Notes: generated from the sequence alone by a model not told the origin. A stretch of 64,000 bases of DNA from Spirochaetia bacterium (GCA_965140585.1 OZ223264.1:832001-896000); one strand, 5' to 3'; positions 3,244 through 20,167 are shown, numbered from the stretch's first letter. Made by a program: numbers and translations.

Positions 3244-4701
3244 TTACCTAGCTGACTTAAGTCCCATGATTGCAGTCAGTTTTCTGAAGATGTCTGTATT
3301 GTCATAGTAGCCGTTGAAAGCTTCTGAACCTGCGCCCTCGGCAAATGTAGCAACAGGTACTCCTGTATGCGAGTAGGATGTCCAGCCGAGACCTGCCCGC
3401 TGGTTAAGGATATGTGTAAGAGTCATTGAAAGCGGGTTATAACCGCCGTAGAGAAGGTAGGTCTGCTCATCAGATGCTTTTACTTTTACATTTCCCATAG
3501 CCTGGTCGAATGCCATTGTAAGCTGTTCTTTCTCGTAGTCTGAAAGATCTGTAAGGCCGAAGTTCTTTTCTATTTCAGGCATAAGCTCTGCAAGTGAACC
3601 TCCGTTGGCATGTGCTTCCTTATAAGGTCCGAATACATACTTGTCGAATGCTTCATAGGACATTTTCTGCTTATCAATTTCACTGAAGGCTGAAGCGTAT
3701 TTTGTGCCAGCGAAACCGAGGGCAAGTCCACCTGTCTCATGGTCGCCTGTAACGACTATCAGAGTTTCGTCGGGATGTGCATTATAAAACTTCACTGCTT
3801 CGGCGATAGCCTTATCAAACTCGATAGTGTTGTGAATTGAGGCTGCTGCATCATTTGCATGACATGCCCAGTCAATCTTTCCGCCTTCAACCATCATGAA
3901 GAAGCCTTTATCGTTGTCGAGAAGTTCAATTCCCTTTGTTACATATTCCACCAGGGAAATATCATCTGCTTCCTGATCCATTGCATAGTCAAGAGAGTTT
4001 CTTGTAAAGCTTGTTGCATAATAAGCGTAAACCTGCTTTCCGTCCTGAGTAAGGGCATTAAGCTCATCCCTTGTTGTGGTTACATTCCAGCCTCTTTCGT
4101 TCATCACGTCCAGAGCTGATTTTTCTCCTTCGGGAGTCTTATCCAGGCGGACCATACCGCCGGCAAAGTAATCAAAATTACTGTTTGCCATCTGCATGTT
4201 AATTTCGTAGTAGCTGTTTCTGCTCTGCTGTTTTGCATAGAAAGATGCCGGGGTGGCATGATCAAGGTTGACGCTTGAAAGAATACCAACCTTCATGCCG
4301 GCTTCCTTTGCATATTCCGCTATTGTCTTGAAGGTTTTTGTTTTTGTTGCATCGTAATTGATTACACCTGAAAGGGTTTTGTTGCCTGATGCAATTGCAG
4401 TTCCGGCTGATGCTGAGTCGGTTATGAAAGAACCCGCATCATAGGTTGTTGTAAGCCCCTGAGCCGGGAACTGAGTAAAGCCGAGTTTTGTTACTCCGGG
4501 GGCGGTGCCTTTCTGTGCGTTGAGGTAGGCTTCTGCTGCGTTGATTTGGGGCATTGCCATGCCGTCTCCGATAAAAAGGAAAACGTACTTTGCGTTTACA
4601 TCAGGAGCTGAAGTTTCTGCGACAGCGGTTTCCTGCTGTCCTTCAGCGAAAAGACAGAATGGAATTACTGCCAGTAAAAGAATTGATACTAATTTTTTCA
4701 T
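3244..4701 (-). CDS. Alkaline phosphatase, exported
   Basis: FIGDGM, TDSAS (catalytic Ser), HATPA, EGGKIDWACH, GDHETGG, HT motifs; signal peptide. Confidence 0.95.
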   Translation of the reverse strand: MKKLVSILLLAVIPFCLFAEGQQETAVAETSAPDVNAKYVFLFIGDGMAMPQINAAEAYLNAQKGTAPGVTKLGFTQFPAQGLTTTYDAGSFITDSASAGTAIASGNKTLSGVINYDATKTKTFKTIAEYAKEAGMKVGILSSVNLDHATPASFYAKQQSRNSYYEINMQMANSNFDYFAGGMVRLDKTPEGEKSALDVMNERGWNVTTTRDELNALTQDGKQVYAYYATSFTRNSLDYAMDQEADDISLVEYVTKGIELLDNDKGFFMMVEGGKIDWACHANDAAASIHNTIEFDKAIAEAVKFYNAHPDETLIVVTGDHETGGLALGFAGTKYASAFSEIDKQKMSYEAFDKYVFGPYKEAHANGGSLAELMPEIEKNFGLTDLSDYEKEQLTMAFDQAMGNVKVKASDEQTYLLYGGYNPLSMTLTHILNQRAGLGWTSYSHTGVPVATFAEGAGSEAFNGYYDNTDIFRKLTAIMGLKSAR

Positions 4702-4797
4702 TTCTCTCTCCAAAATATTTTTAGAATTTAGAGAGATCCTGCGCCTGTTTGATTAGGAAATTATGACGGGTTTATGAGATTTCAATTAACTCAAATC

Positions 4798-6516
4798 TTA
4801 TAAAATTACTGAGGAATGGGCCGGAACCTCTAAATCACTGTAAAAAATGGTCTTATTTGAGAGGTTTGCAAATAGAATATGTTCTTTTCCGCCCTCAGTA
4901 TAGCTGATGGTATAGGTTCCGTTATCAGATTCGACCGATTCTATTTTCTTCTTTGACTTTAGAGACTCAAACATCTTCTTTCTTATATCGCTGTATTCTG
5001 CAACATTGTCGGATGTAAAAACAAGAGCTCCGGTAACAGCGTTGATTCTGAACAGTGTTTCTTTTTCGGCTCCGCTCAGTTTGGTATTTCTGTCTCTTAA
5101 TATGAAGACGTCCGGATCGTTTCTGAAAGCCCTCCCGTCAAGATGTCTCCGGCCTATTGCATTTGCCAGTGAGTTCAATGTTGAGGGTCTCTCCCGGTGA
5201 ATCTGGCTACCTCTGAACCCGTCGTCCCAGTCAAGGCTGACATCGCAGCCGATTCTGCAGTAGTCAACTAATCCAAAGGCCGAAGCCAGAGGTACTCCGC
5301 AGCCGAGAATCAGTTTGTCACCGGTAAGTTCCCGCAATAGTTTCATGCCGTCATGCATAACCGCTCCACGGGTTCGTCCCTGAGTTTCCGGTGCAAGGCA
5401 GGCGCCGTAGAGGAAGTCAAGCTTGACCATATCAAATCCCCATTCATTCAGAACTGTATTGAAGACTTCGGCAAGGTGGTCTCTGAACGCCTGATTGTAT
5501 ATATCAAGAGCATAAAATCCGCCCCAGTTTATTCCCGCCTGAACCGGCTTTCCCTTTTCATCCCGCAGCAGCCATTGCGGGTGTTTTTTTACAAGTTCTG
5601 AATTTTTCTGGGCTGAAAACGGGGCAAGCCATAAGCCGGCTTTGTAACCGCCTTCATGAATTCGGGCTACAACCGGAGCAAGCCCTTCAGGGAATTTTGA
5701 CCTGTCAATGCTCAGCCAGTCGCCTGTTGCGGTCTGGAAGCCGTCATCTATCTGAAATATATCGATAGGAAGACCGGTATCAATAAAAGCGTCGAGATTC
5801 TGATTTATTATATCGCTGCTGATATTTTCATAGTGGTCATACCATGAAGTCCATCCTGTTATCTGCGGTGTTTTTACCGCAGGCATCTCCATTGCCGAAA
5901 ACCACTGATCGAAGGCCTTATTTTCGTCATCGGTAACACAAAGCAGTTCAAGTGCTGTTACAGGTTTGTCGGTGGCAAGGTTGTTGCATTCCATGCTCAC
6001 ACGGATTTCTTTTGCCGCAGCTGTAAAACGTATTACAGTGAAAGCGTTCTGCTCATTCAGAGAACCCAGAAGCGTTATCTCATTTGAGCCATTTTTCCTA
6101 ATATATCCGTAAGAGAAGCCGTGAAACTCGCCCGGTCCGGAAGGCTGACGGATAAAATCGTAGTCTCCGTATTTACGAAGCTGAAAGTAGGGATTAACTA
6201 TTCTTCCTAAAAGAGGAATGCCCTTCTGTCTGTCCTGAAGGCCGTGTTCTGAACTGTCGGTCCAGCTCTGGTAGCCGTTGAGGAAAACCTTTTCATCCTG
6301 ATGAAATTCGTACCCGGCAACAAGCTCAAGCCTGTGAATTTTTATTTCAGCACGGGGAATGATTGAAACTTTTACATTTTCCCGTTTTCCGTCATTTGCA
6401 TGGCTCAGATTGAAACCTACAGCCTCTGAGTTGACCGGCGCCTGGAAAGGCATTACAACCGTATGTCTAATTCCGGCAGCCGAGTATTCAGCTTCAAACA
6501 TGGCTTTTTCAAACAT
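4798..6516 (-). CDS. Alpha-galactosidase-like glycoside hydrolase (GH36)
   Basis: GWTSWY, FQIDDGFQ, GLWLAPF, KLDFLY, RIGCDV, NDPD motifs. Confidence 0.88.
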   Translation of the reverse strand: MFEKAMFEAEYSAAGIRHTVVMPFQAPVNSEAVGFNLSHANDGKRENVKVSIIPRAEIKIHRLELVAGYEFHQDEKVFLNGYQSWTDSSEHGLQDRQKGIPLLGRIVNPYFQLRKYGDYDFIRQPSGPGEFHGFSYGYIRKNGSNEITLLGSLNEQNAFTVIRFTAAAKEIRVSMECNNLATDKPVTALELLCVTDDENKAFDQWFSAMEMPAVKTPQITGWTSWYDHYENISSDIINQNLDAFIDTGLPIDIFQIDDGFQTATGDWLSIDRSKFPEGLAPVVARIHEGGYKAGLWLAPFSAQKNSELVKKHPQWLLRDEKGKPVQAGINWGGFYALDIYNQAFRDHLAEVFNTVLNEWGFDMVKLDFLYGACLAPETQGRTRGAVMHDGMKLLRELTGDKLILGCGVPLASAFGLVDYCRIGCDVSLDWDDGFRGSQIHRERPSTLNSLANAIGRRHLDGRAFRNDPDVFILRDRNTKLSGAEKETLFRINAVTGALVFTSDNVAEYSDIRKKMFESLKSKKKIESVESDNGTYTISYTEGGKEHILFANLSNKTIFYSDLEVPAHSSVIL

Positions 6517-6517
6517 T

Positions 6518-6946
6518 TTACACTTCCTTGTTCTGGTACTCTTTTATTGCGTTTCGGTATCTGTCCGGTATTACAATAGTTTCGGCCCTGTCGTAATCAT
6601 AGCCGGCGAATATTGTTGTACAATCGGATTTTATCTCGCCGGTCTGGTTTTCTTTGATTCTCTGCAGCATTGTGAGTGATTTATTGCCGATCTTGATCAC
6701 CGCAGATTCTACTATTATATCATCATGTAGGAAAACCGGTGCAAGAAAATCTGTTTTTACTGAAGCTACCACCAGGGATTTTCCTCCGGGCATATATGGT
6801 TCACCAAGCATTTCGGAAAGGTATTTTACCCTCCCGATATCATAATAATTCTGGTATACAGCGTTGTTTACATGGCCCTGGCCGTCAATATCTCCAAAGC
6901 GTATCTGAACAGGGACCTTGCATTTGAAATCGTGTTGTCTGTGCAT
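6518..6946 (-). CDS. Acyl-CoA thioesterase (4HBT/YbgC hot-dog fold)
   Basis: RFGDIDGQGHVNNAVYQNYYDIGR motif. Confidence 0.9.
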   Translation of the reverse strand: MHRQHDFKCKVPVQIRFGDIDGQGHVNNAVYQNYYDIGRVKYLSEMLGEPYMPGGKSLVVASVKTDFLAPVFLHDDIIVESAVIKIGNKSLTMLQRIKENQTGEIKSDCTTIFAGYDYDRAETIVIPDRYRNAIKEYQNKEV

Positions 6947-6973: not shown

Positions 6974-7090
6974 TTGTCAAGGAGTTAAAAAAATCCATCA
7001 ATATATATAAAAGTGATAGCGATTTACTTGACAATGTAAACCCAAAGTAAATAATATAGAAAGCGAAAAGAAAGAAAATAGAAAGTGAAC
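6974..7090. promoter_or_regulatory. Divergent sigma70-type promoters with GAAA-repeat putative DeoR operator
   Basis: TTGACA at 7028 (+) with AT-rich -10 about 17 bp later; TTGACA on minus strand near 6975-6980; tandem GAAA/GAAAG repeats about 7059-7085. Confidence 0.55.
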
Positions 7091-7121: not shown

Positions 7122-8384
7122 ATGAAAACCAAAGCTGTACGAATATACGGAAAGAACGACCTCAGACTCGAGGAGTTTGAGCTTCCGGCAATGAAAGATG
7201 ATGAAATACTCGCAACAGTAATCTCAGACAGTATCTGTATGTCTTCATACAAGGCTGCTATCCAGGGGCCTGAACATAAAAGGGTTCCCAATGATGTTGC
7301 GCAGAATCCGACAATGATCGGCCATGAATTCTGCGGAGAGATTCTTGAAGTAGGTTCAAAATGGGCTGATAAGTTCAAACCTGGCCAGAAGTTTTCAATT
7401 CAGCCGGCACTTAATTATAAGGGAAGCCTTGATGCTCCGGGTTATTCATTTCATTACATAGGCGGTGATGCGACAAATATCTTGATTCCCAACGAGGTAA
7501 TGGAGATGGACTGTCTTCTTCCTTATGAGGGAGAGGCCTACTTCATGGGATCTCTGAGCGAACCTGTTTCCTGTATTGTCGGAACCTATCACGCCATGTA
7601 CCATATTCCCCAGGGAACTTATATTCATAATATGGGTATTAAGGAAGGCGGAAACCTTGCAATTATTGCCGGTGTCGGTCCAATGGGCCTCGGTGCCATA
7701 GATTACGCCATACATAATCCGGTCAAGCCCGGACTTCTGGTTGTGACCGATATTGACGACGCAAGGCTTAAAAGAGCCTCCGAGGTTTACAGCGTTGAAG
7801 AGGCTGCCAAAAACGGCGTAAAGCTCATCTATCTGAATACAAAGGATACATCAGATCCTGTTAAGCTTCTTATGGATCAGACCGGCGGAGCAGGCTACGA
7901 CGATGTACTGGTTATGGCTCCTGTTAAGCCGCTTATTGAACAGGGAGACTCAATACTTACAAAAGACGGATGTCTGAACTTCTTTGCAGGACCTTCAAAT
8001 ACAGAGTTTAAGGCTGAACTCAATTTTTACAACGTTCACTATGAGTTCCATCACCTTGTAGGAACAAGCGGCGGAAACACAGCTGATATGCGTGAATCAC
8101 TTGAAATGATGGGCCGCGGAGAATTGAACCCCGCATCGATGATAACCCATATCGGCGGACTTGATTCCGTTGTCGAGACTACACTTAATCTGCCCAAGAT
8201 TCCCGGCGGCAAAAAACTGATTTATGTTCAGAAGAGCATGCCGCTTACAGCAATTGCCGATTTTGAAGAACTCGGCAAGTCAGACCCTGTTTTTGCCGAA
8301 CTTGATAAGCTCGTAAAGAAACATAACGGCTTGTGGAACCTTGAAGCCGAAAAATATCTTCTTGCTCACAGTACCTCAATTTAG
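7122..8384 (+). CDS. Zinc-binding dehydrogenase, L-sorbose-1-phosphate reductase (SorE)-like
   Basis: MKTKAVRIYGKNDLRLEEFELP, SDSICMSSYKA, GHE, GVGPMG; LPKIPGGKKLIY C-terminus typical of SorE. Confidence 0.85.
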   Translation: MKTKAVRIYGKNDLRLEEFELPAMKDDEILATVISDSICMSSYKAAIQGPEHKRVPNDVAQNPTMIGHEFCGEILEVGSKWADKFKPGQKFSIQPALNYKGSLDAPGYSFHYIGGDATNILIPNEVMEMDCLLPYEGEAYFMGSLSEPVSCIVGTYHAMYHIPQGTYIHNMGIKEGGNLAIIAGVGPMGLGAIDYAIHNPVKPGLLVVTDIDDARLKRASEVYSVEEAAKNGVKLIYLNTKDTSDPVKLLMDQTGGAGYDDVLVMAPVKPLIEQGDSILTKDGCLNFFAGPSNTEFKAELNFYNVHYEFHHLVGTSGGNTADMRESLEMMGRGELNPASMITHIGGLDSVVETTLNLPKIPGGKKLIYVQKSMPLTAIADFEELGKSDPVFAELDKLVKKHNGLWNLEAEKYLLAHSTSI

Positions 8385-8393
8385 CGGTAAGGC

Positions 8394-9146
8394 ATGCATA
8401 GTTTAACCGAAAGAGAAAGGCGGATAGTTGAGATCCTGTCTGAAGAGGGCAGGGTCAGCGTCTCGGAGATAAGCGAGCGGCTGAATGTTTCAACCGTGAC
8501 TGTCAGAAGCGATTTTAACAGTCTGGTTGAAAAAGGCGTGCTCGTGAAAACCCGGGGCGGGGCTGTTCCGGCAATGCACCCGGAAATCCTTGAGCGTCAG
8601 AGGGATATGACTGATGTAAAAAGAAGGATTGCAAAGGAAGCTGCTTCAATGGTTGAAGACGGCGATTCCATTATGATATGTGCAGGTACGACAACTGCGT
8701 ATATCGGGAATTATCTCTTGGGCAAAAGAGACATCAGGATAGTTACAAACTCAACCCTGCTTCTTCCGTATGCAAGGATGAACCCTTCAATAAACCTTAC
8801 CCTTGTAGGCGGAGAATTCCGTCCGATGGCTGAAGCTGTTGTGGGTCCGGAGCCAATCAGACAGCTGGATGCCTACCATGTGAAAATTGCTTTTATCGGA
8901 ACGGAAGGATTCTCATATCAAAGCGGGATGACCACCCAGCTTGTTGAGAATTCGGAAATAATTAAAAAGATGGTCAGGCAGTCGGAAAAGACGGTTCTTC
9001 TTGCTGACTCGGGAAAATACAACAAGGTGGGCTTTGTGAAAATCCTGCCGCTTGAAAGTACAGACCTGATTATTTCGGATGAGGGATTGGACCAGACGGT
9101 CAGGGCTGAAATGGAAGAAAAAGGACTGAACCTGAAGATAGTTTAA
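8394..9146 (+). CDS. DeoR/GlpR family transcriptional regulator
   Basis: HTH VSTVTVRSD..RGGA; DeoRC domain with GTTT, TNS, LADSGK. Confidence 0.93.
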   Translation: MHSLTERERRIVEILSEEGRVSVSEISERLNVSTVTVRSDFNSLVEKGVLVKTRGGAVPAMHPEILERQRDMTDVKRRIAKEAASMVEDGDSIMICAGTTTAYIGNYLLGKRDIRIVTNSTLLLPYARMNPSINLTLVGGEFRPMAEAVVGPEPIRQLDAYHVKIAFIGTEGFSYQSGMTTQLVENSEIIKKMVRQSEKTVLLADSGKYNKVGFVKILPLESTDLIISDEGLDQTVRAEMEEKGLNLKIV

Positions 9147-9262
9147 ATCGGGAACACATTCGTGTATTTTCGATTTTCAGAAGTTTGAAAGCAAGGCTTT
9201 AAAACTTCATTTTTGAACCTGCCGTCACGGCAGAATGATTGATGTATTATTAGGAGAGAAAT

Positions 9263-10660
9263 ATGGCAACAGCGTTATTGATGCCAAAGCAGGGTAACTC
9301 GGTAGAATCCTGTCTCATTCTTGAATGGATGAAGAAGGAAGGCGACCGGGTTAATGTCGGTGATGTAGTCTGCGAGGCTGAAACCGACAAGGCAACCATA
9401 GAAGTTGAATCTACTGCTGAAGGTACCATTCTAAAGATTTTTTATGGACCGGATACCGAAGTGCCTGTACAGAAAATGATGGCGGTTATCGGTGACCCCG
9501 GTGAAGATATAAGCAGCTTTGAAGCTGAGTTTGCAGCCTCAGGGGACGGTGCATCCGCACCTGCGGCAGAACCCGCTGCGGAAGCTTCCCCCGCCGAATC
9601 AGCTGCTCCGGCAGCAGCACCTGCGGCAGCCCCGGCTGCAGCTGCGGTTAATACTTCCGGCGGAGACCGCTTTGTTTCTCCAAGGGCAAGAAACCTTGCT
9701 GCAGGAAAGGGCTTTGATGCCTCGGGCCTTGCAGGAAGCGGCCCCGGCGGACGTGTAATTGAGCGCGATGTTGTAAATGCACTTGCCGGAAAGGAACCCC
9801 TTACTCCTGCAGCTGTTGCAGCAGTCATAGAGCAGGGCCTTACTGCCCCGGCAGAGGGCACAGGAATCGGCGGAAGGGTCAGACTTCAGGACCTTTCATC
9901 CGCACCCGTTGCTGCTCCGGCAGCAGGCATTACCGCTTCAGCGTCGGCAGCCCTTCCGTTCCCGGGCGCTTTCAGGGATGAAAAGGTTAAGGGTGTAAGA
10001 AAGATTACCGCCGCTAGGATGATGGAATCGCTTTCAAAGACAGCCCAGCTCACACACAATTTTACAGTAGATGCTACCGAACTTCTTGCCTACCGTGCAA
10101 AGTTCAAGAACTCTCCTGAAGAACTCGGTCTTGGAAAGGTCAGCATAAACGATATCGTAATGTTTGCCGCTTCAAGGGTTCTGAAGCTTCATCCTGAGTT
10201 CAACTGCCTCTGGCTCGGCGACACAATGAGATATTTTGACAGTGTCCATCTCGGTTTCGCATGTGATACACCGAAAGGTCTGCTTGTTCCGGTAATAAAG
10301 AATGCCGACAGCCTCAGCCTGAAGGAACTTTCAGCAGAAGCGGCAAGACTTATTGCAGCCTGCCGTGAAGGAAAGGCCCAGCCTGATGAACTTACAGGAG
10401 CCACCTTCACACTAAGCAATGTAGGCGCTTTTGGAATTGACAGCTTTACTCCGATTATTAATCCGCCGGAGATAGGAATACTTGGTGTCTGCTCAACCCA
10501 GCTTAAGCCTGTGAGAACAGCGAACGGAGTTGAGTATCGAGATCACATCGGCTTCTCACTGACCTATGATCATCAGGCTGCAGACGGTGCACCGGCATCA
10601 AAGTTCTGTGCCGATATCAGGACTGCAGTTGAGAATATCGGGATCTACCTCGCACTGTAG
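9263..10660 (+). CDS. Dihydrolipoamide acyltransferase (E2)
   Basis: Lipoyl ETDKA, Ala/Pro linker, E3-binding SPRARNLA..GSGPGGRV, catalytic DHQAADGA. Confidence 0.95.
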   Translation: MATALLMPKQGNSVESCLILEWMKKEGDRVNVGDVVCEAETDKATIEVESTAEGTILKIFYGPDTEVPVQKMMAVIGDPGEDISSFEAEFAASGDGASAPAAEPAAEASPAESAAPAAAPAAAPAAAAVNTSGGDRFVSPRARNLAAGKGFDASGLAGSGPGGRVIERDVVNALAGKEPLTPAAVAAVIEQGLTAPAEGTGIGGRVRLQDLSSAPVAAPAAGITASASAALPFPGAFRDEKVKGVRKITAARMMESLSKTAQLTHNFTVDATELLAYRAKFKNSPEELGLGKVSINDIVMFAASRVLKLHPEFNCLWLGDTMRYFDSVHLGFACDTPKGLLVPVIKNADSLSLKELSAEAARLIAACREGKAQPDELTGATFTLSNVGAFGIDSFTPIINPPEIGILGVCSTQLKPVRTANGVEYRDHIGFSLTYDHQAADGAPASKFCADIRTAVENIGIYLAL

Positions 10661-10680
10661 AAATTACTGGAGTTTGAATT

Positions 10681-12006
10681 ATGTTTGATTTGATAGTAGC
10701 TGGAGCCGGTCCCGGAGGCTATGTTGCCGCTGAACGTGCCGGCCATATGGGAAAGAAGGTTCTGCTTGTTGAAAAGGAGAACCTCGGCGGTGTCTGCACA
10801 AACCACGGCTGTATTCCCACAAAGAGTCTTCTGAATGCCGCAAAGCATTTTACATACGGAAAAGAATCCGCAAAATTCGGCGTTCATTTTGACAATCCGG
10901 TCTTCAATTTTTCCGAGGCCATGGCCTGGAAGAATGAAACTATAGACAGTCTTAGAAAAGGTATTGCCTTTCTGATGAAGCAGGGCAAGGTTGAAGTCGT
11001 CTACGGTGAAGCAGTTTTTCCCGGAGGGAAAAAGGTGCAGGTCGGCGAAACTGTATACGAGGGTGAGAACCTGATTATTGCAACGGGATCTTCAGCCTTT
11101 GTTCCGCCTATTCCCGGATTTGACGGTCCAAATGTGGTAACAAACCGTGAAATACTGGCGCTGGAGGAACTGCCCAAAAAACTGGCAGTTATCGGCGGAG
11201 GTGTTATCGGCGTTGAGTTTGCTTCTTTCTTCAGTAATGTAGGCGTTGAGGTAAGCGTTATTGAGATGATGGATGAAATATGTCCGATGATGGACGGCGA
11301 AACCGCAAAACTCCTGCGCAAGCAAATGGGTGCGGTAAACTTCCTCCTCTCATCAAAGGTCACAGCAATTACAGCTGACGGTGTTGAATATGAAAAGGAC
11401 GGAAAGAAGGAAAGCGTAAAGGCAGACCTTGTCCTGATGTCAGTCGGAAGGCGGCCGAATGTCGGAGGCTTTGAAAATCTAGGTATTGACTACAGCCCGA
11501 AGGGTGTTGTAGTTGATGAGCGGATGCGAACCAATATTCCCGGTATCTACGCCGTTGGTGATGTAACAGGTGAGAGCCTGCTTGCCCACTCGGCATCAAG
11601 GATGGGTGAAGTTGCCGTGATGAATATGTTCGGAACCGGCGGAATAATGAGATACAACGCGGTCCCCTGGGCTGTTTACTCACTGCCTGAGGTTGCCGGA
11701 TGCGGCTACACAGAAAAGGATGCAAAGGCTGCCGGATACAATGTGAAATCTGCCGCTATGCAGATGCGCGCCAACGGCCGCTTTCTCGCCGAACACGGAA
11801 AGGAAGCCGGTATGTGCAAGGTTATTGCTGATGCCGATACCGACATGATTCTCGGCGTTCACATGATCGGCGCTGTATGTTCGGAGATGATAGGTACAGC
11901 CGCTGCAGCAATTGAAGCGGAACTTCGTACAAAGGATATGAGAGAAATTATCTTCCCGCACCCGAGCGTGTCGGAAATTATCAAAGATGTATGCTGGATG
12001 CTTTAA
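10681..12006 (+). CDS. lpdA: Dihydrolipoyl dehydrogenase (E3)
   Basis: GAGPGGYVAA, GGVCTNHGCIPTK, GGGVIG, HPSVSE. Confidence 0.95.
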   Translation: MFDLIVAGAGPGGYVAAERAGHMGKKVLLVEKENLGGVCTNHGCIPTKSLLNAAKHFTYGKESAKFGVHFDNPVFNFSEAMAWKNETIDSLRKGIAFLMKQGKVEVVYGEAVFPGGKKVQVGETVYEGENLIIATGSSAFVPPIPGFDGPNVVTNREILALEELPKKLAVIGGGVIGVEFASFFSNVGVEVSVIEMMDEICPMMDGETAKLLRKQMGAVNFLLSSKVTAITADGVEYEKDGKKESVKADLVLMSVGRRPNVGGFENLGIDYSPKGVVVDERMRTNIPGIYAVGDVTGESLLAHSASRMGEVAVMNMFGTGGIMRYNAVPWAVYSLPEVAGCGYTEKDAKAAGYNVKSAAMQMRANGRFLAEHGKEAGMCKVIADADTDMILGVHMIGAVCSEMIGTAAAAIEAELRTKDMREIIFPHPSVSEIIKDVCWML

Positions 12007-12035
12007 TCCGGTGCTAAGTTATAAGGAGTTATCAA

Positions 12036-14495
12036 ATGCCTAAAATACTTGAAATAAGGCCGGAAGAAGTTAGAAAGCCCGGCACCATCAAAATAAAGGA
12101 TATACCGGTAAACCAGTATAAGCCTGATATTAAGAAAGAACTTAAGCTGTACGGAAAAGACGGCCTTATCGGCATGTACTATGACATGCTTATTATCCGC
12201 GAGTTTGAAACCATGCTCGATCTCATCAAGAAGGAAGGTTCCTACAACGGACTTGAATACAACCACAAGGGGCCTGCACACCTTTCTGCCGGTCAGGAGT
12301 CCGCATCAGTCGGTCAGTGCGCCGTCCTTGATACAGACGACTTTATCTTCGGTTCCCACCGAAGCCACGGTGAAATACTTGCAAAGTGTTTTTCCGCTAT
12401 CAAGAAGCTTGATGAAGCAAGCCTGAAATCAACAATGGAAGGCTTCATGAACGGCGAAGCTCTGGGAATCGTTGATAAGCACCACAAGGGCGATAACGTA
12501 AAAGACCTTGCAGAGAACTTCGTTCTATATGGAGCACTCGCCGAGATTTTCGCCAGAGCCCCCGGTTTCAACAGAGGCCTCGGCGGTTCAATGCACACCT
12601 TCTTTGCCCCCTTCGGCAGCATGCCCAATAACGCAATTGTAGGCGGAAGTGCCGACATCAGCGTCGGTTCTGCCCTTTACAAGAGAATCAACCGGAAGCC
12701 CGGTATCGTAATTGCCAACATAGGCGACGGATCAATGGCTTGTGGTCCTGTGTGGGAAGGTCTTATGCTTGCAGCAATGGACCAGTACAACACCCTCTGG
12801 GACAAGGATCTCGGCGGAGCTCCTCCAATTATGGTTAATATCTTCAACAACTTCTACGCAATGGGCGGACAGACAAACGGTGAAACAATGGGTTACAAGG
12901 AGCCCGCCAGAATCGGCGCCGGTGTTAATCCCGACAATATGCATGCAGAGCGTGTAGACGGATTCAATCCGCTCGCAGTTGCAGATGCAATGACCAGGAA
13001 GAAAAAACTCCTGCTGGAAGGCAAGGGTCCTGTATTGATGGATACAATCACCTACAGACTCTCCGGCCACTCACCCTCAGATGCTTCATCATACAGAAGC
13101 AAGGAGGAGATGGATGCCTTCAGGGACGCTGATGTAATTCAGAACTTTGAAAAGTACCTCATTGAGAATGATGTTCTTGATCAGAAAACTTCCGAGAGCC
13201 TCAAAGAGAAGGTTACCGGAAAGATTACCAATACAATGCGTATTGCAATTGACGACAATATTTCAAAGCATGTAGACGGCAAGTTCATCGAATCTGTGAT
13301 GTTCTCAAATACAAAGATGGAAAAACTCGATGACCGCGAGCCCGAAGTTCTTATGCCGCTTGAGGAAAACCCGAGAGTAAAGGCAAACGCCAGAAAGAGA
13401 AGATACGCCTTCGATGAAGCAGGAAACAAGCTTCCGGCTTCAAAGCAGTTTGTATACCGTGATGCGCTTTTTGAAGCGGCCGTTCATGGTTTTTATACCG
13501 ATCCGACATTGGTCGCATATGGTGAAGAAAACCGTGACTGGGGCGGAGCTTTTGCCGTTTACCGCGGTCTTACTGAAGCTCTTCCGTACCACAGACTGTT
13601 CAACTCACCGATCTCAGAAGGTTCAATTGTAGGCTCGGCTGTAGGTTACGCTATGAGCGGCGGACGTGCAATGGTTGAACTCATGTACTGCGATTTCCTC
13701 GGAAGGGCAGGTGATGAAGTATTCAACCAGATGCCCAAGTGGCAGTCAATGTCCGGAGGCGAGCTCAGAATGCCGCTTGTCCTTCGTGTTTCTGTCGGAA
13801 ACAAATACGGCGCCCAGCACTCACAGGACTGGTCGGCTCTTGTTGCCCATATTCCCGGACTCAAGGCAATGTTCCCTGCAACTCCGTATGATGCAAAGGG
13901 GATGCTTAACCTGGCGCTCAGTGGAACAGACCCTGTTATCTTTTTTGAAAGCCAGAAACTTTACGGTATCGGCGAAGAGTTTGAGAAAGCCGGTGTTCCT
14001 GAAGGATACTATGAAATCGAAGAAGGCGAACCTGCAGTTAGAAGAACCGGAAGTGATGTAACAATTATCACCATCGGGGCTACTCTCTATGAAGCAGTCA
14101 AGGCTGCCGATGAGCTTCAGGAAAAATACGGAATGAGCGCCGAGGTTATCGACCTCAGATTCATCAATCCGCTCAACTATGACAAGATCATCGAGTCTGT
14201 TAAGAAGACCGGTAAGGTGGTTCTTTCATCAGACGCAAGCGAGAGGGGTTCATACCTGCACAACATAGCATCAAATATCAGCAGACTGGCATTCGATTAC
14301 CTCGATGCGCCACCGGTAGTAGTCGGTTCAAAGAACTGGATTACTCCGCCGGCAGAAATGGAAGACTACTTCTTCCCGACATCAAAGTGGATCATTGATG
14401 CCATTGATGAAAACATAATTCCGCTTTCCGGCCACAGCCCTTCATCTGTTCAGACCAACGGAGAGCTCCTCAGATCCCAGAGGGAAGGTGTATGA
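12036..14495 (+). CDS. Fused alpha/beta E1 component of a ThDP-dependent 2-oxoacid/acetoin-type dehydrogenase
   Basis: [18 protein letters not shown] ThDP motif, TYRLSGHS; beta half NSPISE, AQHSQ. Confidence 0.92.
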
Positions 14496-15829
14496 TAAAT
14501 ACCGATCCCGGAAAAGTATTATCAGAGCAACTCAACAGCAGCAGCCGGACCGAGCGTCTGGCTGCTGCTTCTGCAATAGGGGATATGATTAAAAGCGGGA
14601 AGCTCTCAAACGGGCAGACCGATGAGGTCAACAATCATATCCATACAATTTATTCCTTCAGCCCTTATTCACCTTCAAAGGCCGCATTTATGGCCTGGGC
14701 ATCAGGACTGAAGGCTGCGGGCAGTGTTGACCATGACAGCATCGGGGCGGCCGCGGAGATGGTTGAAGCATGTAAGTCCATAGGCATAGGTTCGACAACC
14801 GGCTTTGAGCTGAGAGTCAACTTCAGCGGCACTTCACTTGAAACCAGAAAGATAAACAACCCCGACACCATAAACAGTGCATACATCTGTATTCACGGCG
14901 TTCCCCACGGTCGCTTTGCTGAGGTTGCGGAATTTATCAAGCCGATAAGAGATGAGCGGAATATCAGAAACCGGACGGAGGTTGAAAAGCTCAACAGCAT
15001 CCTTCCTCAGGGAGTTTTTGAAACCCTGGATTTTGAGAAGGATGTGCTTGCAATTTCAGAATCTGCAGACGGGGGAGGTGTTACCGAGCGTCATATCCTC
15101 TACGCCTTAAGCCATAAGATAATCGAGGCTGCCGGAAAGGGGGAGGGCACGGTTGATTTGGTAACTGATAAACTCGGCATACCTTTGACTGATAAAATCA
15201 AAGGCTTCCTGCTTGATACTGAAAATCCCCATTATGTTTACGATCTGCTCGGCATACTCAAAAGCAATCTTGTACCGTCTTTTTTCATACAGCCGAATGA
15301 GGTTGAATGTCCGGCTGCAGATAAGGTTGTGGCATTTGCCAACAGCATCAATGCTATTCCTTCGTATGCCTACCTCGGAGATGTTGCCGAAAGTCCTACC
15401 GGAGACAAGAAGGCTGAAAAATTCGAGGATGACTATCTTGATGAACTGTTTGAAATATTGAAAAAGACCGGCTTCAAGGCAGTAACATACATGCCGCCGA
15501 GAAACACTGTTAAGCAGCTTCTTCGGGTACAGGCTCTCTGCGATAAGCATGCGTTCATGCAGATCAGCGGTGTGGATATAAACTCCTCCAGACAGGTTTT
15601 CAGATGTCCGGAAATTCTTCAGCCCGAGTTTACACATCTTATCGATGCAACATGGACGCTTATTGCTCATGAGCATCTTGCCTCTGCCGACGAATCTTAT
15701 GCGCTTTTCAATCCTCAAGGAAAATTCGCGTCAAAGCCGCTTTCCGAAAGAATGAAGCTCTATGCTGAGGCCGGTAAAAAGATGGATCTTTTTAATCCTG
15801 AAAATATAATCGATTTAATAGGAGCATAA
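14492..15829 (+). CDS. PHP-domain metallophosphoesterase
   Basis: NNHIHTIYS (HxH), DHD, GFE motifs; 4-bp overlap with E1 stop (translational coupling). Confidence 0.8.
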
Positions 15830-15830
15830 A

Positions 15831-16928
15831 ATGAGCATAAAAGCAGAAGCTATAGCACCGCTTATCCGCGGGCTTACATATAACGGTGAAACAGGGGCAA
15901 CTGTAACCTTCAGTCCTGAGAGGAAATCCGGACCGGGTGTGCTTTCTGTTAAGGATGCTGAAGCTTTTTTTGAGAATCCCGGTACTGCATACAGTGAGTA
16001 TCTGTTAGTAAACAAGAATATTCCTGAAGCCGTTTCGGTGGAAGGCTTGGGGTCTTTTGCTGTCAGTACAGCACTGCGCGACGGCTGGCCTTCAGTACTA
16101 GCCGGTAAGATTGCAGTAGTAACCGGCGGGGCCCAGGGCTTTGGAGCAGGCATTGTCGAGCAGCTTGTGAAAAAGGACATCTTTGTCTTTGTTGCCGACA
16201 TGAACCTTAAGGGTGCGCAGGAGTTTGCCGCACAGACTAATAAGTCTATCGGTAGAGAATGCTGCGACGCCGTCGAGGTCAATGTTGCTGATGAAGCTTC
16301 TGTTGAACAGATGATGAATACCATTGCCCTGAAGAAGGGCGGAATTGATATCTTTATAAATAACGCCGGTGTGCTTAAGGCCGGTAGCGTTAAAGAGATG
16401 AATCTCGGAGATTTTGAGTTTGTGACAAAGGTAAACTACACCGGCTACTTCATCTGCACCAAGTTCGCCTCACGCCTTATGGCTGAGCAGAACCGGGGTG
16501 CTGAATCAATCGGCAAAAACTATTACTCCGATGTTATCCAGATAAACTCAAAGTCAGGGCTTGAGGGATCAAACAAGAACGGTGCATATGCCGGCGGCAA
16601 GTTCGGCGGAATCGGCCTTACCCAGAGTTTCGCTCTTGAACTGATAAGCGACAATATCAAGGTTAACTCAATATGTCCGGGGAACTTCTTTGAAGGCCCT
16701 CTCTGGTCGGATCCGGAAAGGGGACTTTTTGTTCAATATTTAAACGCTGGAAAGGTTCCGGGTGCGAAGACAATTGCGGATGTGAAGGAGTTCTATGAGG
16801 CAAAGGTTCCAATGGGCCGCGGCTGTAATCCTGTCGATGTATCAAAGGCTGTTTTTTACCTTGTAGAGCAGAAATATGAAACAGGACAGGCCCTCCCGGT
16901 AACCGGCGGCCAGATAATGTTAAAATAA
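15831..16928 (+). CDS. SDR, sorbitol-6-phosphate 2-dehydrogenase-like, with N-terminal extension
   Basis: TGGAQGFG, NNAG, INSKSG, YAGGK, VPMGRGC, TGQALPVTGGQ resemble SrlD/SorD. Confidence 0.82.
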   Translation: MSIKAEAIAPLIRGLTYNGETGATVTFSPERKSGPGVLSVKDAEAFFENPGTAYSEYLLVNKNIPEAVSVEGLGSFAVSTALRDGWPSVLAGKIAVVTGGAQGFGAGIVEQLVKKDIFVFVADMNLKGAQEFAAQTNKSIGRECCDAVEVNVADEASVEQMMNTIALKKGGIDIFINNAGVLKAGSVKEMNLGDFEFVTKVNYTGYFICTKFASRLMAEQNRGAESIGKNYYSDVIQINSKSGLEGSNKNGAYAGGKFGGIGLTQSFALELISDNIKVNSICPGNFFEGPLWSDPERGLFVQYLNAGKVPGAKTIADVKEFYEAKVPMGRGCNPVDVSKAVFYLVEQKYETGQALPVTGGQIMLK

Positions 16929-16943
16929 GGGAGCGGTTGATTT

Positions 16944-18359
16944 ATGAGGAAGTTTATAGCTGTAGACCTGGGAGCATCAAGCGGCAGGGTGATTGTCGGG
17001 GATCTCTACGGAATAGAGATAATGACAAGATTTCCAAGCCGGATTGTCAGGATTAAAGACACAATATACTGGGATTTTCTTGCCCTTTTCACAGATATTA
17101 AAAAGGGTCTGAAGGAAGCCTTTGATAAATACGGAAGCCAGATTAAAAGTATCGGGATAGATACCTGGGGCGTTGATTATGCTCTGCTTGATAAAAACGG
17201 AGATCTCATCTCCAACCCATACCACTACCGCGACAGCAGAACAGATGGTATGGAGGAGGAGTTTTTCAAGCTTGTTCCTAAAGAGGATATATACAAGGAA
17301 ACCGGTATTCAGTTCATGCAGCTCAATACCATCTTCCAGCTGCTTGCTCACAGCAGAAAATCTCCTGAAACGGTTGCCGCTGCAAGGCATTTTCTTACCG
17401 TACCGGACCTGCTGAACTACTGGCTGACAGGCGTAATCAGCAACGAGTTTTCCGAAGCCTCAACGACCCAGCTGCTCAATCCCGAGACTCGCAAGTGGTC
17501 TGAAAGACTGATAACCGCAGCCGGGTTTAAGCCTGAAATATTCAGTGATGTTGTCCTTCCGGGCGCCGTAATTGGAAAGCTCCTGCCGGAAGAGGCGGCC
17601 GAAATAGGGGCTCCTTCCGATGTTGTTGTAACGGCACCGGCCTGTCACGATACCGCATCAGCGGTTGCCGCAATGCCATATACCGGCAGCGGGAATGCAG
17701 CATACCTGAGTTCCGGTACCTGGTCTCTGCTCGGTATTGAACTTGAGAAACCCATTATCAATGATCTTAGCTTCAAGTATAATTTTACCAATGAAGGCGG
17801 CCGTGAAGGTCTTATTACATACCTTAAGAATATAATGGGGCTCTGGGTAATTCAGGAATGCAAGGCCGACTGGGACAAGAGCGGGAACGAACTAGGCTGG
17901 GGTGAGATTGTGAGTCTTGCAGAGAAAGCCCGGACAGCGGAATGGCCTGTGGATCTCGATGATCCGCTGTTTTTGAAATCAAGTCTTACAGACGGCAGCA
18001 TGCCCGGCCGCATCATTCAGTACTGTAAGGATGCCGGAACTGATGTGCCTGCAAACCCGGGTGAGGTTGCTGCATGTGTATTCAGAAATCTTGCTGATAA
18101 GTATGCAAAAACTGTTGGAAAGCTTGAAGAAATAACCGGTAAGCGGGTGGAGCAGCTTAATATTATCGGCGGCGGCTGTCAGAATGATCTTATAAATAAA
18201 TGGACTGCCGAAGCTCTTAAAAGACCTGTTCTGGCCGGACCGGTAGAGGCGACAGCCCTTGGAAATATTCTGATTCAGGCTGTATCTGCCGGTGAAGTTT
18301 CCTCCTATGAAGAAGGCAGAAAACTGATCGCTCAGAACTTCGAAATCAGAGAGTACTAA
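16944..18359 (+). CDS. Rhamnulokinase-family (FGGY) sugar kinase
   Basis: AVDLGASSGRV, IDTWGVDY, HYRDSRT, HDTASAV, SSGTWSL, TNEGG, GPVEATALGN. Confidence 0.92.
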   Translation: MRKFIAVDLGASSGRVIVGDLYGIEIMTRFPSRIVRIKDTIYWDFLALFTDIKKGLKEAFDKYGSQIKSIGIDTWGVDYALLDKNGDLISNPYHYRDSRTDGMEEEFFKLVPKEDIYKETGIQFMQLNTIFQLLAHSRKSPETVAAARHFLTVPDLLNYWLTGVISNEFSEASTTQLLNPETRKWSERLITAAGFKPEIFSDVVLPGAVIGKLLPEEAAEIGAPSDVVVTAPACHDTASAVAAMPYTGSGNAAYLSSGTWSLLGIELEKPIINDLSFKYNFTNEGGREGLITYLKNIMGLWVIQECKADWDKSGNELGWGEIVSLAEKARTAEWPVDLDDPLFLKSSLTDGSMPGRIIQYCKDAGTDVPANPGEVAACVFRNLADKYAKTVGKLEEITGKRVEQLNIIGGGCQNDLINKWTAEALKRPVLAGPVEATALGNILIQAVSAGEVSSYEEGRKLIAQNFEIREY

Positions 18360-18399: not shown

Positions 18400-18648
18400 C
18401 CATAGATTTACACACATAATATTTTTTTGAAAAAAAAAATTATGCAAAAACACCGGGAAACCCGTACCGGGGCATCCCGGTGTTTCATCCATCAAGAAGC
18501 GGGTGGAGATTTCTTTTGGCCGGCAGCCGATGCCGGTCTTTTTTTGCTGTACAGAATGATCATAAAAAATAGAATATAGTAAAACATATATAGACAAATA
18601 GAAATATAGCGTGTATCCTGTGGTTAATAATTGAATGGAGAATCTGTA

Positions 18649-19164
18649 ATGAAATCCTCAAATCGTATAACCTCATTTTTTACTTCTAAAAGGAGATGGA
18701 TACAGCTGCTTGCCGGTGCGGGGATGTTTGCCGCAGTATTTTACCTGCATATCAGCCTTTTGTATGTTCTCGGCGTCGGGGCTTTGGCAGGAATAATATT
18801 TGGAAAGGTTTTCTGCCGCTGGATCTGCCCGATGGGTTTTATCAAGGAGCTTCTAACCGGTTCAGTTCCCGATGAAGATAAGTTTATACAGACATACCAG
18901 TATCACAAAATGGGATGCCCAATTGCCTGGGTTTCCGGATTCCTCAACAGGTTTTCATTGTTCAGGATAAAACTGGACCGGGACTCATGTAAAAACTGCG
19001 GAGTCTGCGACAGGGCCTGCTACCTATCTACACTGGAGTCAGAGACTTACAGTTTATATAAAGAAGATAAAAAGATTCCCGGAGAAGCATTCGCCTGTTC
19101 CAAATGTCTTAAATGTGTTGAAGCCTGTCCTTCAGGATGTCTGAGCTACAGTCCGGGCAGATAG
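18649..19164 (+). CDS. Small membrane 4Fe-4S binding protein (NapH/MauN-like)
   Basis: TM segments, FCRWICPMG, CKNCGVCDRAC, CSKCLKCVEACP; ATG start chosen over the upstream TTG. Confidence 0.85.
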   Translation: MKSSNRITSFFTSKRRWIQLLAGAGMFAAVFYLHISLLYVLGVGALAGIIFGKVFCRWICPMGFIKELLTGSVPDEDKFIQTYQYHKMGCPIAWVSGFLNRFSLFRIKLDRDSCKNCGVCDRACYLSTLESETYSLYKEDKKIPGEAFACSKCLKCVEACPSGCLSYSPGR

Positions 19165-19243
19165 CCGGAAGCATTAGAAAAACACTACTTGAAATTGCTG
19201 TCTCCAGCAAATAGAATGATGGAACTTTTTAAACGGGGTTCAT

Positions 19244-20167
19244 ATGGGCAATATCTTATCTTCTGTTTTCAGCGTGGTACCGATTTTCATCCTGATAATT
19301 TTCGGGATAATTCTCCGGCGTTTCAATTTTCTGAATGATGATTTTATTAAAAAATCCAATAAGATAATTTTTACATTTGCACTGCCGGCGACCCTTTTTC
19401 AGAAGATGCGCTCTATTGAATCAGTACCATCCGAACTGCTTGGGGGGATTGGTGTCTTTCTTGCTGCAACCATCACCACAGTTTTTGTAACATGGCTCAT
19501 CCTTCGTAGATACGAGCACCCTATGAGGGCAAGTGCACTGCAGGGGGCATTCCGCAGCAATGTTGCTATTGTAGGCCTTGCAGTTGTGCAGAATCTGCTG
19601 TCTGATTCCGGTGTTGCTGTGGCCATCGTAATTATAGCTTTTACTATGCCTGTTTATAATATACTTTGTATCATTGTTCTTGGGGATCACTCAGAACAGA
19701 AACCGTATCAGATTGTATTGAATGTAATTATAAAATTAATAAAAAATCCGCTGTTTTTGAGTCTTGCCGCCGGTTTATTGTTTTCGCTGATTAAAATCCC
19801 TGTACATTCGGTGATTGATTCATCGTTGAATTATCTTTCCAGAATGACTCTGCCGCTTGCACTGCTTTGTGTAGGAGGTTCACTTCAGCTTTCCAGCCTT
19901 ATTCATGGCAGGGTTTTATGGGGTGTAAGTTCATTCATGAAGCTTGTTCTTCTTCCGCTGCTTGTCTTTACTGCCTGCAGGCTTCTGAACTATTCGAATG
20001 AAATGACAGCTGTTCTTGTGCTTCTCGCAGGCAACCCGACTGCAGTTTCAACCTTTGCAATGGCAGACGGGTTCGGGGCTGATACAAGGCTTGCGGGTGA
20101 AATAATATCGGTGACAACTATTTTTTCTATAATCACCATGTCGCTCTGGATTGTAGTTTTAATCTGA
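19244..20167 (+). CDS. AEC (auxin efflux carrier) family transporter
   Basis: About 10 TM; FRSN.AIVG, PLALLCVG, KLVLLP, PTAV motifs. Confidence 0.9.
   Translation: MGNILSSVFSVVPIFILIIFGIILRRFNFLNDDFIKKSNKIIFTFALPATLFQKMRSIESVPSELLGGIGVFLAATITTVFVTWLILRRYEHPMRASALQGAFRSNVAIVGLAVVQNLLSDSGVAVAIVIIAFTMPVYNILCIIVLGDHSEQKPYQIVLNVIIKLIKNPLFLSLAAGLLFSLIKIPVHSVIDSSLNYLSRMTLPLALLCVGGSLQLSSLIHGRVLWGVSSFMKLVLLPLLVFTACRLLNYSNEMTAVLVLLAGNPTAVSTFAMADGFGADTRLAGEIISVTTIFSIITMSLWIVVLI

Follow-up and report, generated by a model that had tools for sequence, protein, structure and literature searches.

A candidate acetyl-CoA-forming branch of L-rhamnose catabolism encoded by a fused-E1 dehydrogenase operon of fermentative anaerobes

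The DNA analysed here (the window) is a stretch of 64,000 nucleotides from the genome of a Spirochaetia bacterium (GCA_965140585.1, OZ223264.1:832001-896000), and the system in question is an operon of eight genes at positions 7122-18359 in which sugar enzymes are encoded together with an E1/E2/E3 complex of the 2-oxoacid dehydrogenase type. The operon is read as the kinase-plus-lower-half of the L-rhamnose (6-deoxyhexose) regulon of fermentative anaerobes, with the upper half on another contig (C2) of the same genome, and that it belongs to rhamnose or deoxyhexose catabolism is very likely. The probable product of the complex is acetyl-CoA, formed from the methyl end of the sugar. For cleavage at the level of the C6 sugar phosphate, to acetyl-CoA and a C4 phosphate, a probability of about 40% is given. 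RhaEW-type phosphorylative rhamnose catabolism is known; the candidate acetyl-CoA-forming branch, hitherto uncharacterized, is new. All enzyme steps of the pathway are inferred from sequence and gene neighbourhood.

The operon, the genome's third E1/E2/E3 complex and the link to L-rhamnose

Open reading frame (ORF) listing, together with Pfam and NCBIfam scans, gave eight tightly packed genes running in one direction on the + strand, as follows.

7122-8384, + strand: Zn-dependent MDR dehydrogenase ("ADH"), 420 amino acids; PF08240 (ADH_N) and PF00107 (ADH_zinc_N), NAD-type Rossmann motif
8394-9146, + strand: DeoR-family regulator; HTH_DeoR and DeoRC, under every NCBIfam equivalog cut-off
9263-10660, + strand: E2 dihydrolipoyl acyltransferase; PF00364 (Biotin_lipoyl), PF02817 (E3_binding) and PF00198 (2-oxoacid_dh)
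10681-12006, + strand: E3 dihydrolipoyl dehydrogenase; TIGR01350, 484 bits, over the cut-off of 409
12036-14495, + strand: fused E1 alpha-beta thiamine-diphosphate (ThDP) enzyme, 819 amino acids; PF00676 (E1_dh), PF02779 (Transket_pyr) and PF02780 (Transketolase_C)
14492-15829, + strand: PHP-fold metal phosphoesterase-like protein, 445 amino acids; predicted fold, start overlapping the E1 stop by 4 nt
15831-16928, + strand: SDR of RhaW/SrlD type with a 90-amino acid N-terminal extension; NF009050 (SrlD), 223 bits
16944-18359, + strand: rhamnulokinase-like FGGY kinase; TIGR02627, 461 bits

Intergenic spacings are 9, 116, 20 and 29 nt, followed by the 4-nt overlap of E1 and PHP and then by 1 and 15 nt. 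These coordinates bear out a preliminary description of the region, which had noted eight same-strand genes with E1, PHP, SDR and kinase overlapping or at most 15 bp apart.

The domain content of the complex is that of the 2-oxoacid dehydrogenase type, with a ThDP-dependent E1, an E2 carrying lipoyl, subunit-binding and acyltransferase domains, and an E3, which alone among the eight operon proteins passed a curated equivalog cut-off in NCBIfam. For E1 and E2 the nearest models were those of pyruvate dehydrogenase (PDH), and every one scored under its cut-off: 175 against 394 for the alpha part of E1, 232 against 321 and 229 against 454 for the beta part, and 297 bits against 445 for E2 with the best PDH E2 model. 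No acetoin-specific model matched beyond the lipoyl domain in the NCBIfam scan, and we know of no residues that reliably tell pyruvate-type from acetoin-type E1 active sites. The best 120 relatives of the fused E1 are 70-83% identical to it and carry generic names only. Relatives of this E1 include one from Gracilinema caldarium. Elsewhere in the same genome lie a canonical PDH on contig C6 (L099; E1 beta 491 bits, over the cut-off; E2 422 bits) and a split E1a/E1b-E2-E3 operon (C1:926302-932004, L098) followed by a SorC/DeoR-type regulator resembling DeoR of B. subtilis. One fermentative spirochaete therefore has three oxoacid-dehydrogenase-type gene sets, of which the fused-E1 complex is the third and a specialized one, and the suggestion that it is not the ordinary PDH of the organism was upheld. 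A separate classical E1 alpha is also encoded in four of five other cluster-bearing genomes; Pontiella has a SucA-like one only.

The link to rhamnose begins in the genome itself (98.5% complete), where the single RhaA (651 bits, over the cut-off) is found on contig C2 in a locus comprising an AraC regulator, RhaA, a 372-amino acid aldolase, a two-component system, a RhaS-type binding protein (439 bits against a cut-off of 342), an ABC ATPase, two permeases and RhaM. This C2 locus has no kinase and no SDR. The window kinase matches the rhamnulokinase RhaB model TIGR02627 over its full length, at a score under the cut-off of 528 bits, and is the sole rhamnulokinase-like gene of the genome, all other FGGY matches being 21-26% identical (tblastn); in relatives the kinase gene adjoins RhaA. 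The 372-amino acid C2 protein (RhaE-type) corresponds to the class II aldolase portion at the N-terminus of "bifunctional aldolase/SDR" families, and the operon SDR aligns to positions 409-670 of TIGR02632 (RhaD_aldol-ADH) with 131 bits. In two relatives, L072 (674 amino acids) and G088 (662 amino acids), the aldolase is fused to the operon SDR, and both fusions align to TIGR02632 positions 3-670 of 676, scoring 246 and 323 bits against an equivalog cut-off of 568. Of the L072 fusion, residues 9-393 align with the C2 aldolase (33% identity) and residues 415-673 with the window SDR (59% identity); the aldolase-plus-SDR domain pair of RhaEW is present in this genome, divided between C2 and the window. 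The preliminary description had reported neither a phosphotransferase system (PTS) nor an aldolase. Within 7122-18359 this is correct, since ORF and family scans found no gene of either kind there; genome-wide it does not hold for the aldolase, which is a constant RhaE-type companion found in every lineage examined.

The best-scoring model of the SDR is sorbitol-6-phosphate dehydrogenase (NF009050), under its cut-off of 307 bits, and its best PDB match is sorbitol-6-phosphate dehydrogenase 5o3z (152 bits). It is thus SrlD-like as first described, and just as much of the RhaW type of the RhaEW family as set out in the accessible text of Rodionova et al. (2013; PMC3870299). For the MDR dehydrogenase the best NCBIfam match was IolM-like (70 bits against a cut-off of 450) and the best PDB matches were sorbitol dehydrogenase and ketose reductase (~43 bits), threonine and butanediol dehydrogenases also being among its nearest solved relatives. 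It is the best-conserved operon member across lineages (62-86% identity by tblastn).

Conservation was examined in 80 loci from species-representative genomes, retrieved with an alignment of 17 PHP relatives and searched by tblastn with eight window proteins. The cluster occurs in Spirochaetia (Oceanispirochaeta, Sphaerochaeta, Pleomorphochaeta and Sediminispirochaeta), Pontiella/Kiritimatiellales, other Verrucomicrobiota, Lentisphaeria and Atribacterota. E1 lies immediately 5' of PHP in 42 of the 61 loci that extend 3 kb or more upstream, and an SDR immediately 3' of PHP in 44 of the 64 that extend 1.5 kb or more downstream. Both flanks are long in 36 loci, of which 23 have E2, E3, E1, SDR and ADH all together; in these 36 the individual members were found in 28 (DeoR), 29 (E2), 28 (E3), 29 (E1), 31 (SDR), 29 (ADH) and 21 (kinase). 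The DeoR gene leads the cluster in most relatives. In G040, L036 and L067 the kinase is replaced by another FGGY kinase, of FGGY_C_2 type, which points to the kinase as an integral member whatever its origin. The preliminary description had left itself open to refutation by a lack of conservation; in this neighbourhood check the association of E1/E2/E3 with the sugar genes is kept across phyla, and that refutation fails.

Co-occurrence extends to genomes in which the genes are apart. Where PHP is unlinked to E1, an E1 ortholog was still found in the genome in five of five cases (61-73% identity, some 7-17 kb away); in a second unlinked set it was found in three of five genomes, with a 40% identical relative in one and none found in one. 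Among 101 genomes of the Pontiella phylum, all six with a strong PHP match have an E1 ortholog, and 10 more have E1 (50-63% identity) with no strong PHP match. Among 151 Spirochaetota genomes, seven have an E1 ortholog (at least 59% identity), five of them PHP-positive and two (G067 and G115) PHP-negative; in G088, which is PHP-positive and just 82% complete, no E1 was found. Two variants that lack PHP (L112 and L114) have the order E2-E3-E1-ADH with ADH adjoining E1, so that the system looks like two modules, one of ADH and E1/E2/E3 and one of kinase, aldolase-like protein, SDR and PHP. In the cluster variant of genome G087 (L101:13487-15041), two genes resemble lipoyl synthase and octanoyl/lipoyl transferase, an assignment we presume from their N-terminal motifs; such genes would fit the need of E2 for lipoylation. 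A GH88 gene lies at the end of the same cluster.

The rhamnose genes follow the cluster in other genomes as well. RhaA lies beside it in four of the 80 loci, as does the aldolase, and an AraC-RhaA(-aldolase) group directly adjoins it in L015, L037, L041 and L071. In the complete 2.5-Mb genome G040, cluster and Rha genes lie within ~20 kb. The Rha locus of P. sulfatireligans holds RhaA, RhaM, the aldolase, a rhamnulokinase-like kinase and GH106 and GH78 rhamnosidases; Pontiella has two rhamnulokinase-like genes, one inside the cluster and one in the Rha locus. RhaA was found in five of six PHP-positive and 10 of 145 PHP-negative Spirochaetota genomes, the sixth PHP-positive genome (G087) having a xylose-isomerase-like TIM-barrel gene in the cluster in place of RhaA, and in 14 of 16 E1-positive and 46 of 85 E1-negative genomes of the Pontiella-side sample. 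Because related genomes are not independent, these patterns are read as consistent trends and not as statistics.

With the RhaEW pathway, as the accessible text of Rodionova et al. (PMC3870299) describes it, the system has in common RhaA, RhaM, a RhaS-type ABC transporter, a rhamnulokinase-like kinase, a RhaE-type aldolase and a RhaW-type SDR, as well as an aldolase-SDR pair under a DeoR-type regulator that is fused in some relatives. It differs in that aldolase and SDR are split in this genome, lie on different contigs and score far under the equivalog cut-off, and in that they always occur with the fused E1, E2 (usually E3) and the MDR, and mostly with PHP, none of which appears in that text. 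Pyruvate dehydrogenase, PHP, acetoin and the string "Spirochaet" are likewise mentioned nowhere in it. A literature search over the main text of open papers found, among the papers listed, no E1/E2/E3-PHP-MDR module in rhamnose catabolism, and within the same bounds the earlier remark that no characterized pathway has this layout stands.

Transketolase adjoins the cluster in 14 of the 80 loci and in G088, covering at least four lineages (Pontiella, Oceanispirochaeta, L042 and G088), and transaldolase adjoins it in four of the 80. Three ideas arising around these enzymes were discarded. Replacement of E1/E2/E3 by transketolase in the E1-less Oceanispirochaeta loci was rejected because all five genomes hold an E1 ortholog elsewhere. 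Absence of transaldolase as support for an aldolase/bisphosphatase route was dropped, the genome itself having one TAL_FSA gene. A D-apiose-like transketolase pathway was rejected, as the context is rhamnose and no literature joining apulose and transketolase was found.

The PHP-like protein and paralogous fused E1 genes

The window PHP protein gave no Pfam match at 1e-3, and many of its relatives match PF02811 (PHP). Its AlphaFold model has a pLDDT of 91.5, and Foldseek aligned the model to the TrpH/YciV-type PHP enzymes 3o0f, 2yb1 and 9etk (E 1e-8 to 1e-10, 13-18% identity, probability 1.00) with TM-scores, normalized to the target, of 0.69-0.75. A profile search of PDB sequences returned only BAD_1165, weakly. 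On its predicted fold the protein is a member of the PHP superfamily (PF02811). The family alignment has an invariant HxH, with H49, H51, H81, E106, H135, H201, D362 and H393 invariant, as are seven Arg residues; the invariant His, Asp and Glu residues are taken by us to be metal ligands, an assignment made from general knowledge of the fold and not by superposition. The pattern in the alignment suggests a metal site and a polyanionic substrate. With an E-value limit of 0.001 the family numbers at least 7,934 proteins; source databases name them generically only, and listed relatives include some from Bacillota, Actinomycetota and Chloroflexota.

PHP also occurs within longer proteins, fused to an SDR (P0241 and P0244), to a rhamnulokinase-like FGGY kinase (P0243), to class II aldolase domains (P0246) and to an MtlD-like mannitol-1-phosphate 5-dehydrogenase (P0242). 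These fusions to sugar enzymes argue for a metabolic role. The TrpH/YciV-type enzymes (Cv1693 pAp phosphatase 2yb1, RNase AM 9etk and BAD_1165 3o0f) share the fold and the metal-ligand-like columns with the window protein, which differs from them in being ~150 residues longer, in a large helical insertion and in its low identity; its gene context and fusion partners are sugar-phosphate enzymes and not those of nucleotide or RNA metabolism. Seven further protein clusters of 831-862 amino acids (P0245 and P0247-P0252) combine an N-terminal S-adenosylmethionine-methyltransferase region (PF13847, PF13679) with PHP at 41-45% identity. At two Verrucomicrobiota loci (L079:2852-6562 and L059:4559-8247), both remote from E1 genes, a gene for a Hanks-type Ser/Thr protein kinase (~785 amino acids) ends 4-10 nt before PHP. 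A function of PHP as a regulatory protein phosphatase of E1, as such a neighbour might suggest, is disfavoured by the sugar-enzyme fusions and kept as a minor possibility.

A second line of evidence concerns paralogues of the fused E1. In the spirochaete family f13 a genome has between one and three fused E1 paralogues (34-37% identity, ~760 amino acids), and six contexts of such genes (L104-L109; genomes G090, G070, G144 and G032) showed no adjoining E2 or E3. In L105, L107 and L108 the paralogous E1 adjoins an MtlD-like mannitol-1-phosphate 5-dehydrogenase (by Pfam for L105 and L107), L107 having a DeoR gene as well. The L105 neighbour matches PDB 3h2z with 202 bits, and all three neighbours share 44-48% identity with the MtlD portion of P0242, the fusion with PHP. 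Two unrelated dehydrogenase families, the SrlD-type SDR and MtlD, are thus partners of fused E1 or PHP, and what links the two is that they convert hexitol phosphates to ketose phosphates and back.

A candidate route and its rivals

In the proposed route, the kinase would yield L-rhamnulose-1-phosphate. The MDR dehydrogenase, the SrlD/RhaW-type SDR or both would then oxidize the CH3-CHOH- end of the still-phosphorylated C6 compound, either directly at C5 or by a SorE/SrlD-like "flip" to a 1-deoxy-ketohexose 6-phosphate. By either option the product would carry an acetoin-like CH3-CO-CHOH- motif, the bond of which the fused E1 may split in the manner of acetoin dehydrogenase, with E2 and E3 giving acetyl-CoA and NADH. 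The C4 phosphate would be handled by the aldolase-like protein, the SDR and PHP, to dihydroxyacetone phosphate (DHAP) or an intermediate of the pentose phosphate pathway. The point of such a pathway, if it exists, would be that the methyl end is kept as acetyl-CoA, and hence as ATP, and is not excreted as 1,2-propanediol. We only tentatively suggest the most specific form of the proposal, in which the fused E1 oxidatively cleaves a phosphorylated 1-deoxy- or 5-keto-6-deoxy-hexulose, with no decarboxylation of an oxoacid, to acetyl-CoA and a C4 sugar phosphate that the class II aldolase-like protein and PHP, the latter as a new kind of sugar-phosphate enzyme, would return to central metabolism. 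Such an E1 reaction would be a DXS-like reaction reversed on lipoamide.

Action of E1 on a sugar-derived ketone had been proposed in the preliminary description, with transfer of a glycolyl unit to CoA. The first part finds indirect support in the MtlD-adjacent E1 paralogues and the PHP fusions. The second gives way to acetyl transfer, as the sugar is a 6-deoxy sugar and C5-C6 is the only acetoin- or pyruvate-like CH3-CO- group that rhamnose can provide, which makes acetyl-CoA and not glycolyl-CoA the most likely product.

Acetoin and 2,3-butanediol are catabolized by a butanediol dehydrogenase and the AcoABCL complex to acetyl-CoA, a pairing that strict anaerobes use too. The present system is similar in joining a dehydrogenase that would form a CH3-CO-CHOH- group to E1/E2/E3, with ADH adjoining E1 and butanediol dehydrogenase among the PDB matches of the MDR, whereas its E1 alpha and beta parts form one polypeptide, and its setting is a rhamnose regulon that also encodes a kinase, an aldolase-like protein and PHP. 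A second parallel is the L-sorbose pathway of SorE and SorD (SrlD), by analogy with which the MDR and the SrlD-like SDR could flip a ketose-1-phosphate to a ketose-6-phosphate. A 6-deoxy sugar flipped in this way would be a 1-deoxy-ketose phosphate, closed to glycolysis, which would explain a cleaving E1. It differs from that pathway in that no PTS gene was found in the operon or the 80 loci, in the lack of sorbose context and in an MDR without a SorE match.

Cleavage at the C6 level would explain the recurrence of SrlD- and MtlD-type enzymes, the PHP fusions, the in-cluster kinase of Pontiella, the redundancy with PDH and the transketolase and transaldolase neighbours. Several points weigh against it. 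The constant aldolase favours C3 cleavage before the E1 step, as does its relative RhaE, a validated rhamnulose-1-phosphate aldolase whose fused SDR yields L-lactate (PMC3870299). The part that the aldolase-like protein and PHP would play on the C4 phosphate is an ad hoc assumption. The NCBIfam matches of the MDR at E up to 0.001 included neither SorE nor GatD, to which it is thus not close. By stereochemical reasoning L-rhamnulose would give D-threose-4-phosphate and not D-erythrose-4-phosphate, so that an extra epimerization would be needed. The cluster-side transketolase is the only full-length copy in three of four genomes checked and may be just the housekeeping copy; some of the fusions are single records and possible gene-calling read-throughs; and the evidence on MtlD-like enzymes concerns E1 paralogues (34-37% identity) in related genomes of one family. 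As a lead for the C4 fragment, OtnC, of the class II aldolase family, decarboxylates 3-oxo-tetronate 4-phosphate to DHAP; with similar chemistry here, the aldolase-like protein and the SDR would act on that fragment one after the other.

The strongest alternative places the aldolase first, and we regard it as possible, if doubtful. After the kinase, a split RhaEW would give DHAP and L-lactate, the MDR would oxidize lactate to pyruvate, and E1/E2/E3 would form acetyl-CoA and CO2; the complex would pull the unfavourable oxidation of lactate, and PHP would be accessory or have no role in carbon flux. RhaEW activity has been demonstrated for homologues of the same architecture, and L-lactate dehydrogenase (lld) genes are co-regulated with RhaEW in some taxa, according to the accessible text of PMC3870299. 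The aldolase is present in every lineage examined and the cluster has both fused and split aldolase-SDR forms, although the scores of the fused forms (246-323 bits against 568) indicate that their function may differ. Proximity of E1 and E2 to PDH models and the adjacency of ADH and E1 would suit a lactate-to-acetyl-CoA sequence, but a canonical PDH and another E1 operon are already in the genome, with a like situation in four of five other genomes, and to our knowledge no MDR is a lactate dehydrogenase. PHP, its fusions, the second Pontiella kinase and the transketolase and transaldolase neighbours would be left unexplained, and a redox count gives three NADH per lactaldehyde with ATP no higher than by the propanediol route in a fermenter.

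An improbable variant keeps the C3 fragment as an aldehyde or ketone: lactaldehyde would be oxidized or isomerized to methylglyoxal or hydroxyacetone, from which E1 would form acetyl-CoA and formate or formaldehyde, or else the SDR would oxidize rhamnulose-1-phosphate at C5 and the aldolase would then release DHAP and methylglyoxal. Acetoin-type chemistry would suit these substrates, and solved relatives of the MDR oxidize penultimate CHOH groups; yet the intermediates are toxic, PHP and the transketolase neighbours find no explanation, and an E1 that accepts methylglyoxal or hydroxyacetone is not known to us, no specific search for one having been made. In the accessible text of Rodionova et al. 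(PMC3870299), RhaEW without NAD+ gave no DHAP in vitro, which is compatible with oxidation before cleavage and with the sugar phosphate itself as the SDR substrate; the product found there was lactate, not methylglyoxal.

The last two alternatives are very unlikely. An ordinary pyruvate or acetoin dehydrogenase, standing by chance beside sugar genes with no common pathway, would explain the standard domains and the E3 score over its equivalog cut-off, but not the gene order kept across several phyla, the genome-level co-occurrence of E1 and PHP even when unlinked (5/5; 3/5 plus one at 40%; 6/6), or canonical complexes elsewhere beside an E1 and an E2 under all PDH cut-offs. A sorbose or polyol pathway, as first proposed, in which the kinase would take the place of the PTS and E1 would load CoA with a glycolyl unit taken from a ketose phosphate, finds the logic of SorE and SrlD mirrored in the MDR, the SrlD-like SDR and the ketose kinase. 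Sorbose or a generic polyol was abandoned as the sugar, since all genomic context is that of L-rhamnose (RhaA, RhaM, RhaS, GH78, GH106 and the rhamnulokinase model), the 80 loci showed no gene specific to sorbose or polyols, and L-sorbose is used by neither Pontiella type strain (PMC7356697, accessible text).

Putative operon boundaries, flanking genes and physiology

The eight-gene block is bracketed by two features, both consensus matches only.

7028-7055, + strand: promoter-like site 5' of the first gene, TTGACA-16-AATAAT, 11/12 matches
18518-18547, + strand: terminator-like hairpin; stem-loop 18518-18538 with an 8-bp stem and 6 GC pairs, then TTTTTTT

Promoter-like sites numbered 21 in the scanned region, against 15.3 expected from shuffles. 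The hairpin, ~160 nt past the kinase stop, is the best-scoring one of its kind in the scan. G+C content is 47-49% in the operon (8001-18000) and 41-44% in both flanks, a contrast that would fit acquisition of the operon by transfer, as would the high identity that E1 and MDR show across phyla.

Upstream, the - strand (3244-6946) encodes an alkaline phosphatase, a melibiase/GH31-like glycosidase and a 4HBT thioesterase. The divergent thioesterase (6518-6946) was rejected as a pathway member, since among 117 loci only the near-identical relative L001 has it; an unrelated 4HBT gene lies 3' of E1 in L117. Downstream are genes for a NapH-like 4Fe-4S protein and an AEC-family transporter (18631-20167, + strand) and a 616-amino acid N6-adenine DNA methyltransferase of an Eco57I/Alw26I-like type II family, with a TaqI-like C-terminal specificity domain (20756-22606, - strand).

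Physiological data come from the two Pontiella type strains, in F21 of which alone (L025) the cluster was confirmed. According to the accessible text of PMC7356697, both strains grow on L-rhamnose and L-fucose and not on L-sorbose, and fucK was identified in neither. Strain F1, which is without aldA, converts fucose to acetate, H2, ethanol and lactate with no 1,2-propanediol, and strain F21 forms less propanediol than acetate. This physiology fits oxidation of the deoxy end and favours neither the C6 nor the C3 models.

If the complex does turn the methyl end into acetyl-CoA, several consequences would follow. A function would be at hand for the large PHP family and for a conserved, generically named family of fused E1 enzymes. 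If, moreover, E1 cleaves a sugar phosphate, this would be a new type of reaction for oxoacid dehydrogenase complexes, and the E1 paralogues beside MtlD-like dehydrogenases would mark a wider, unrecognized family of E1 enzymes that cleave ketose phosphates in anaerobes. In the glycans of plants, algae and mucins, rhamnose and fucose rank among the major sugars; anaerobes are thought to split lactaldehyde off them, to be excreted as 1,2-propanediol or processed in microcompartments. With the branch proposed here, the fermentation of deoxy sugars in sediments and guts would yield less propanediol and propionate and more acetate, H2 and ethanol, with a changed ATP yield and changed cross-feeding.

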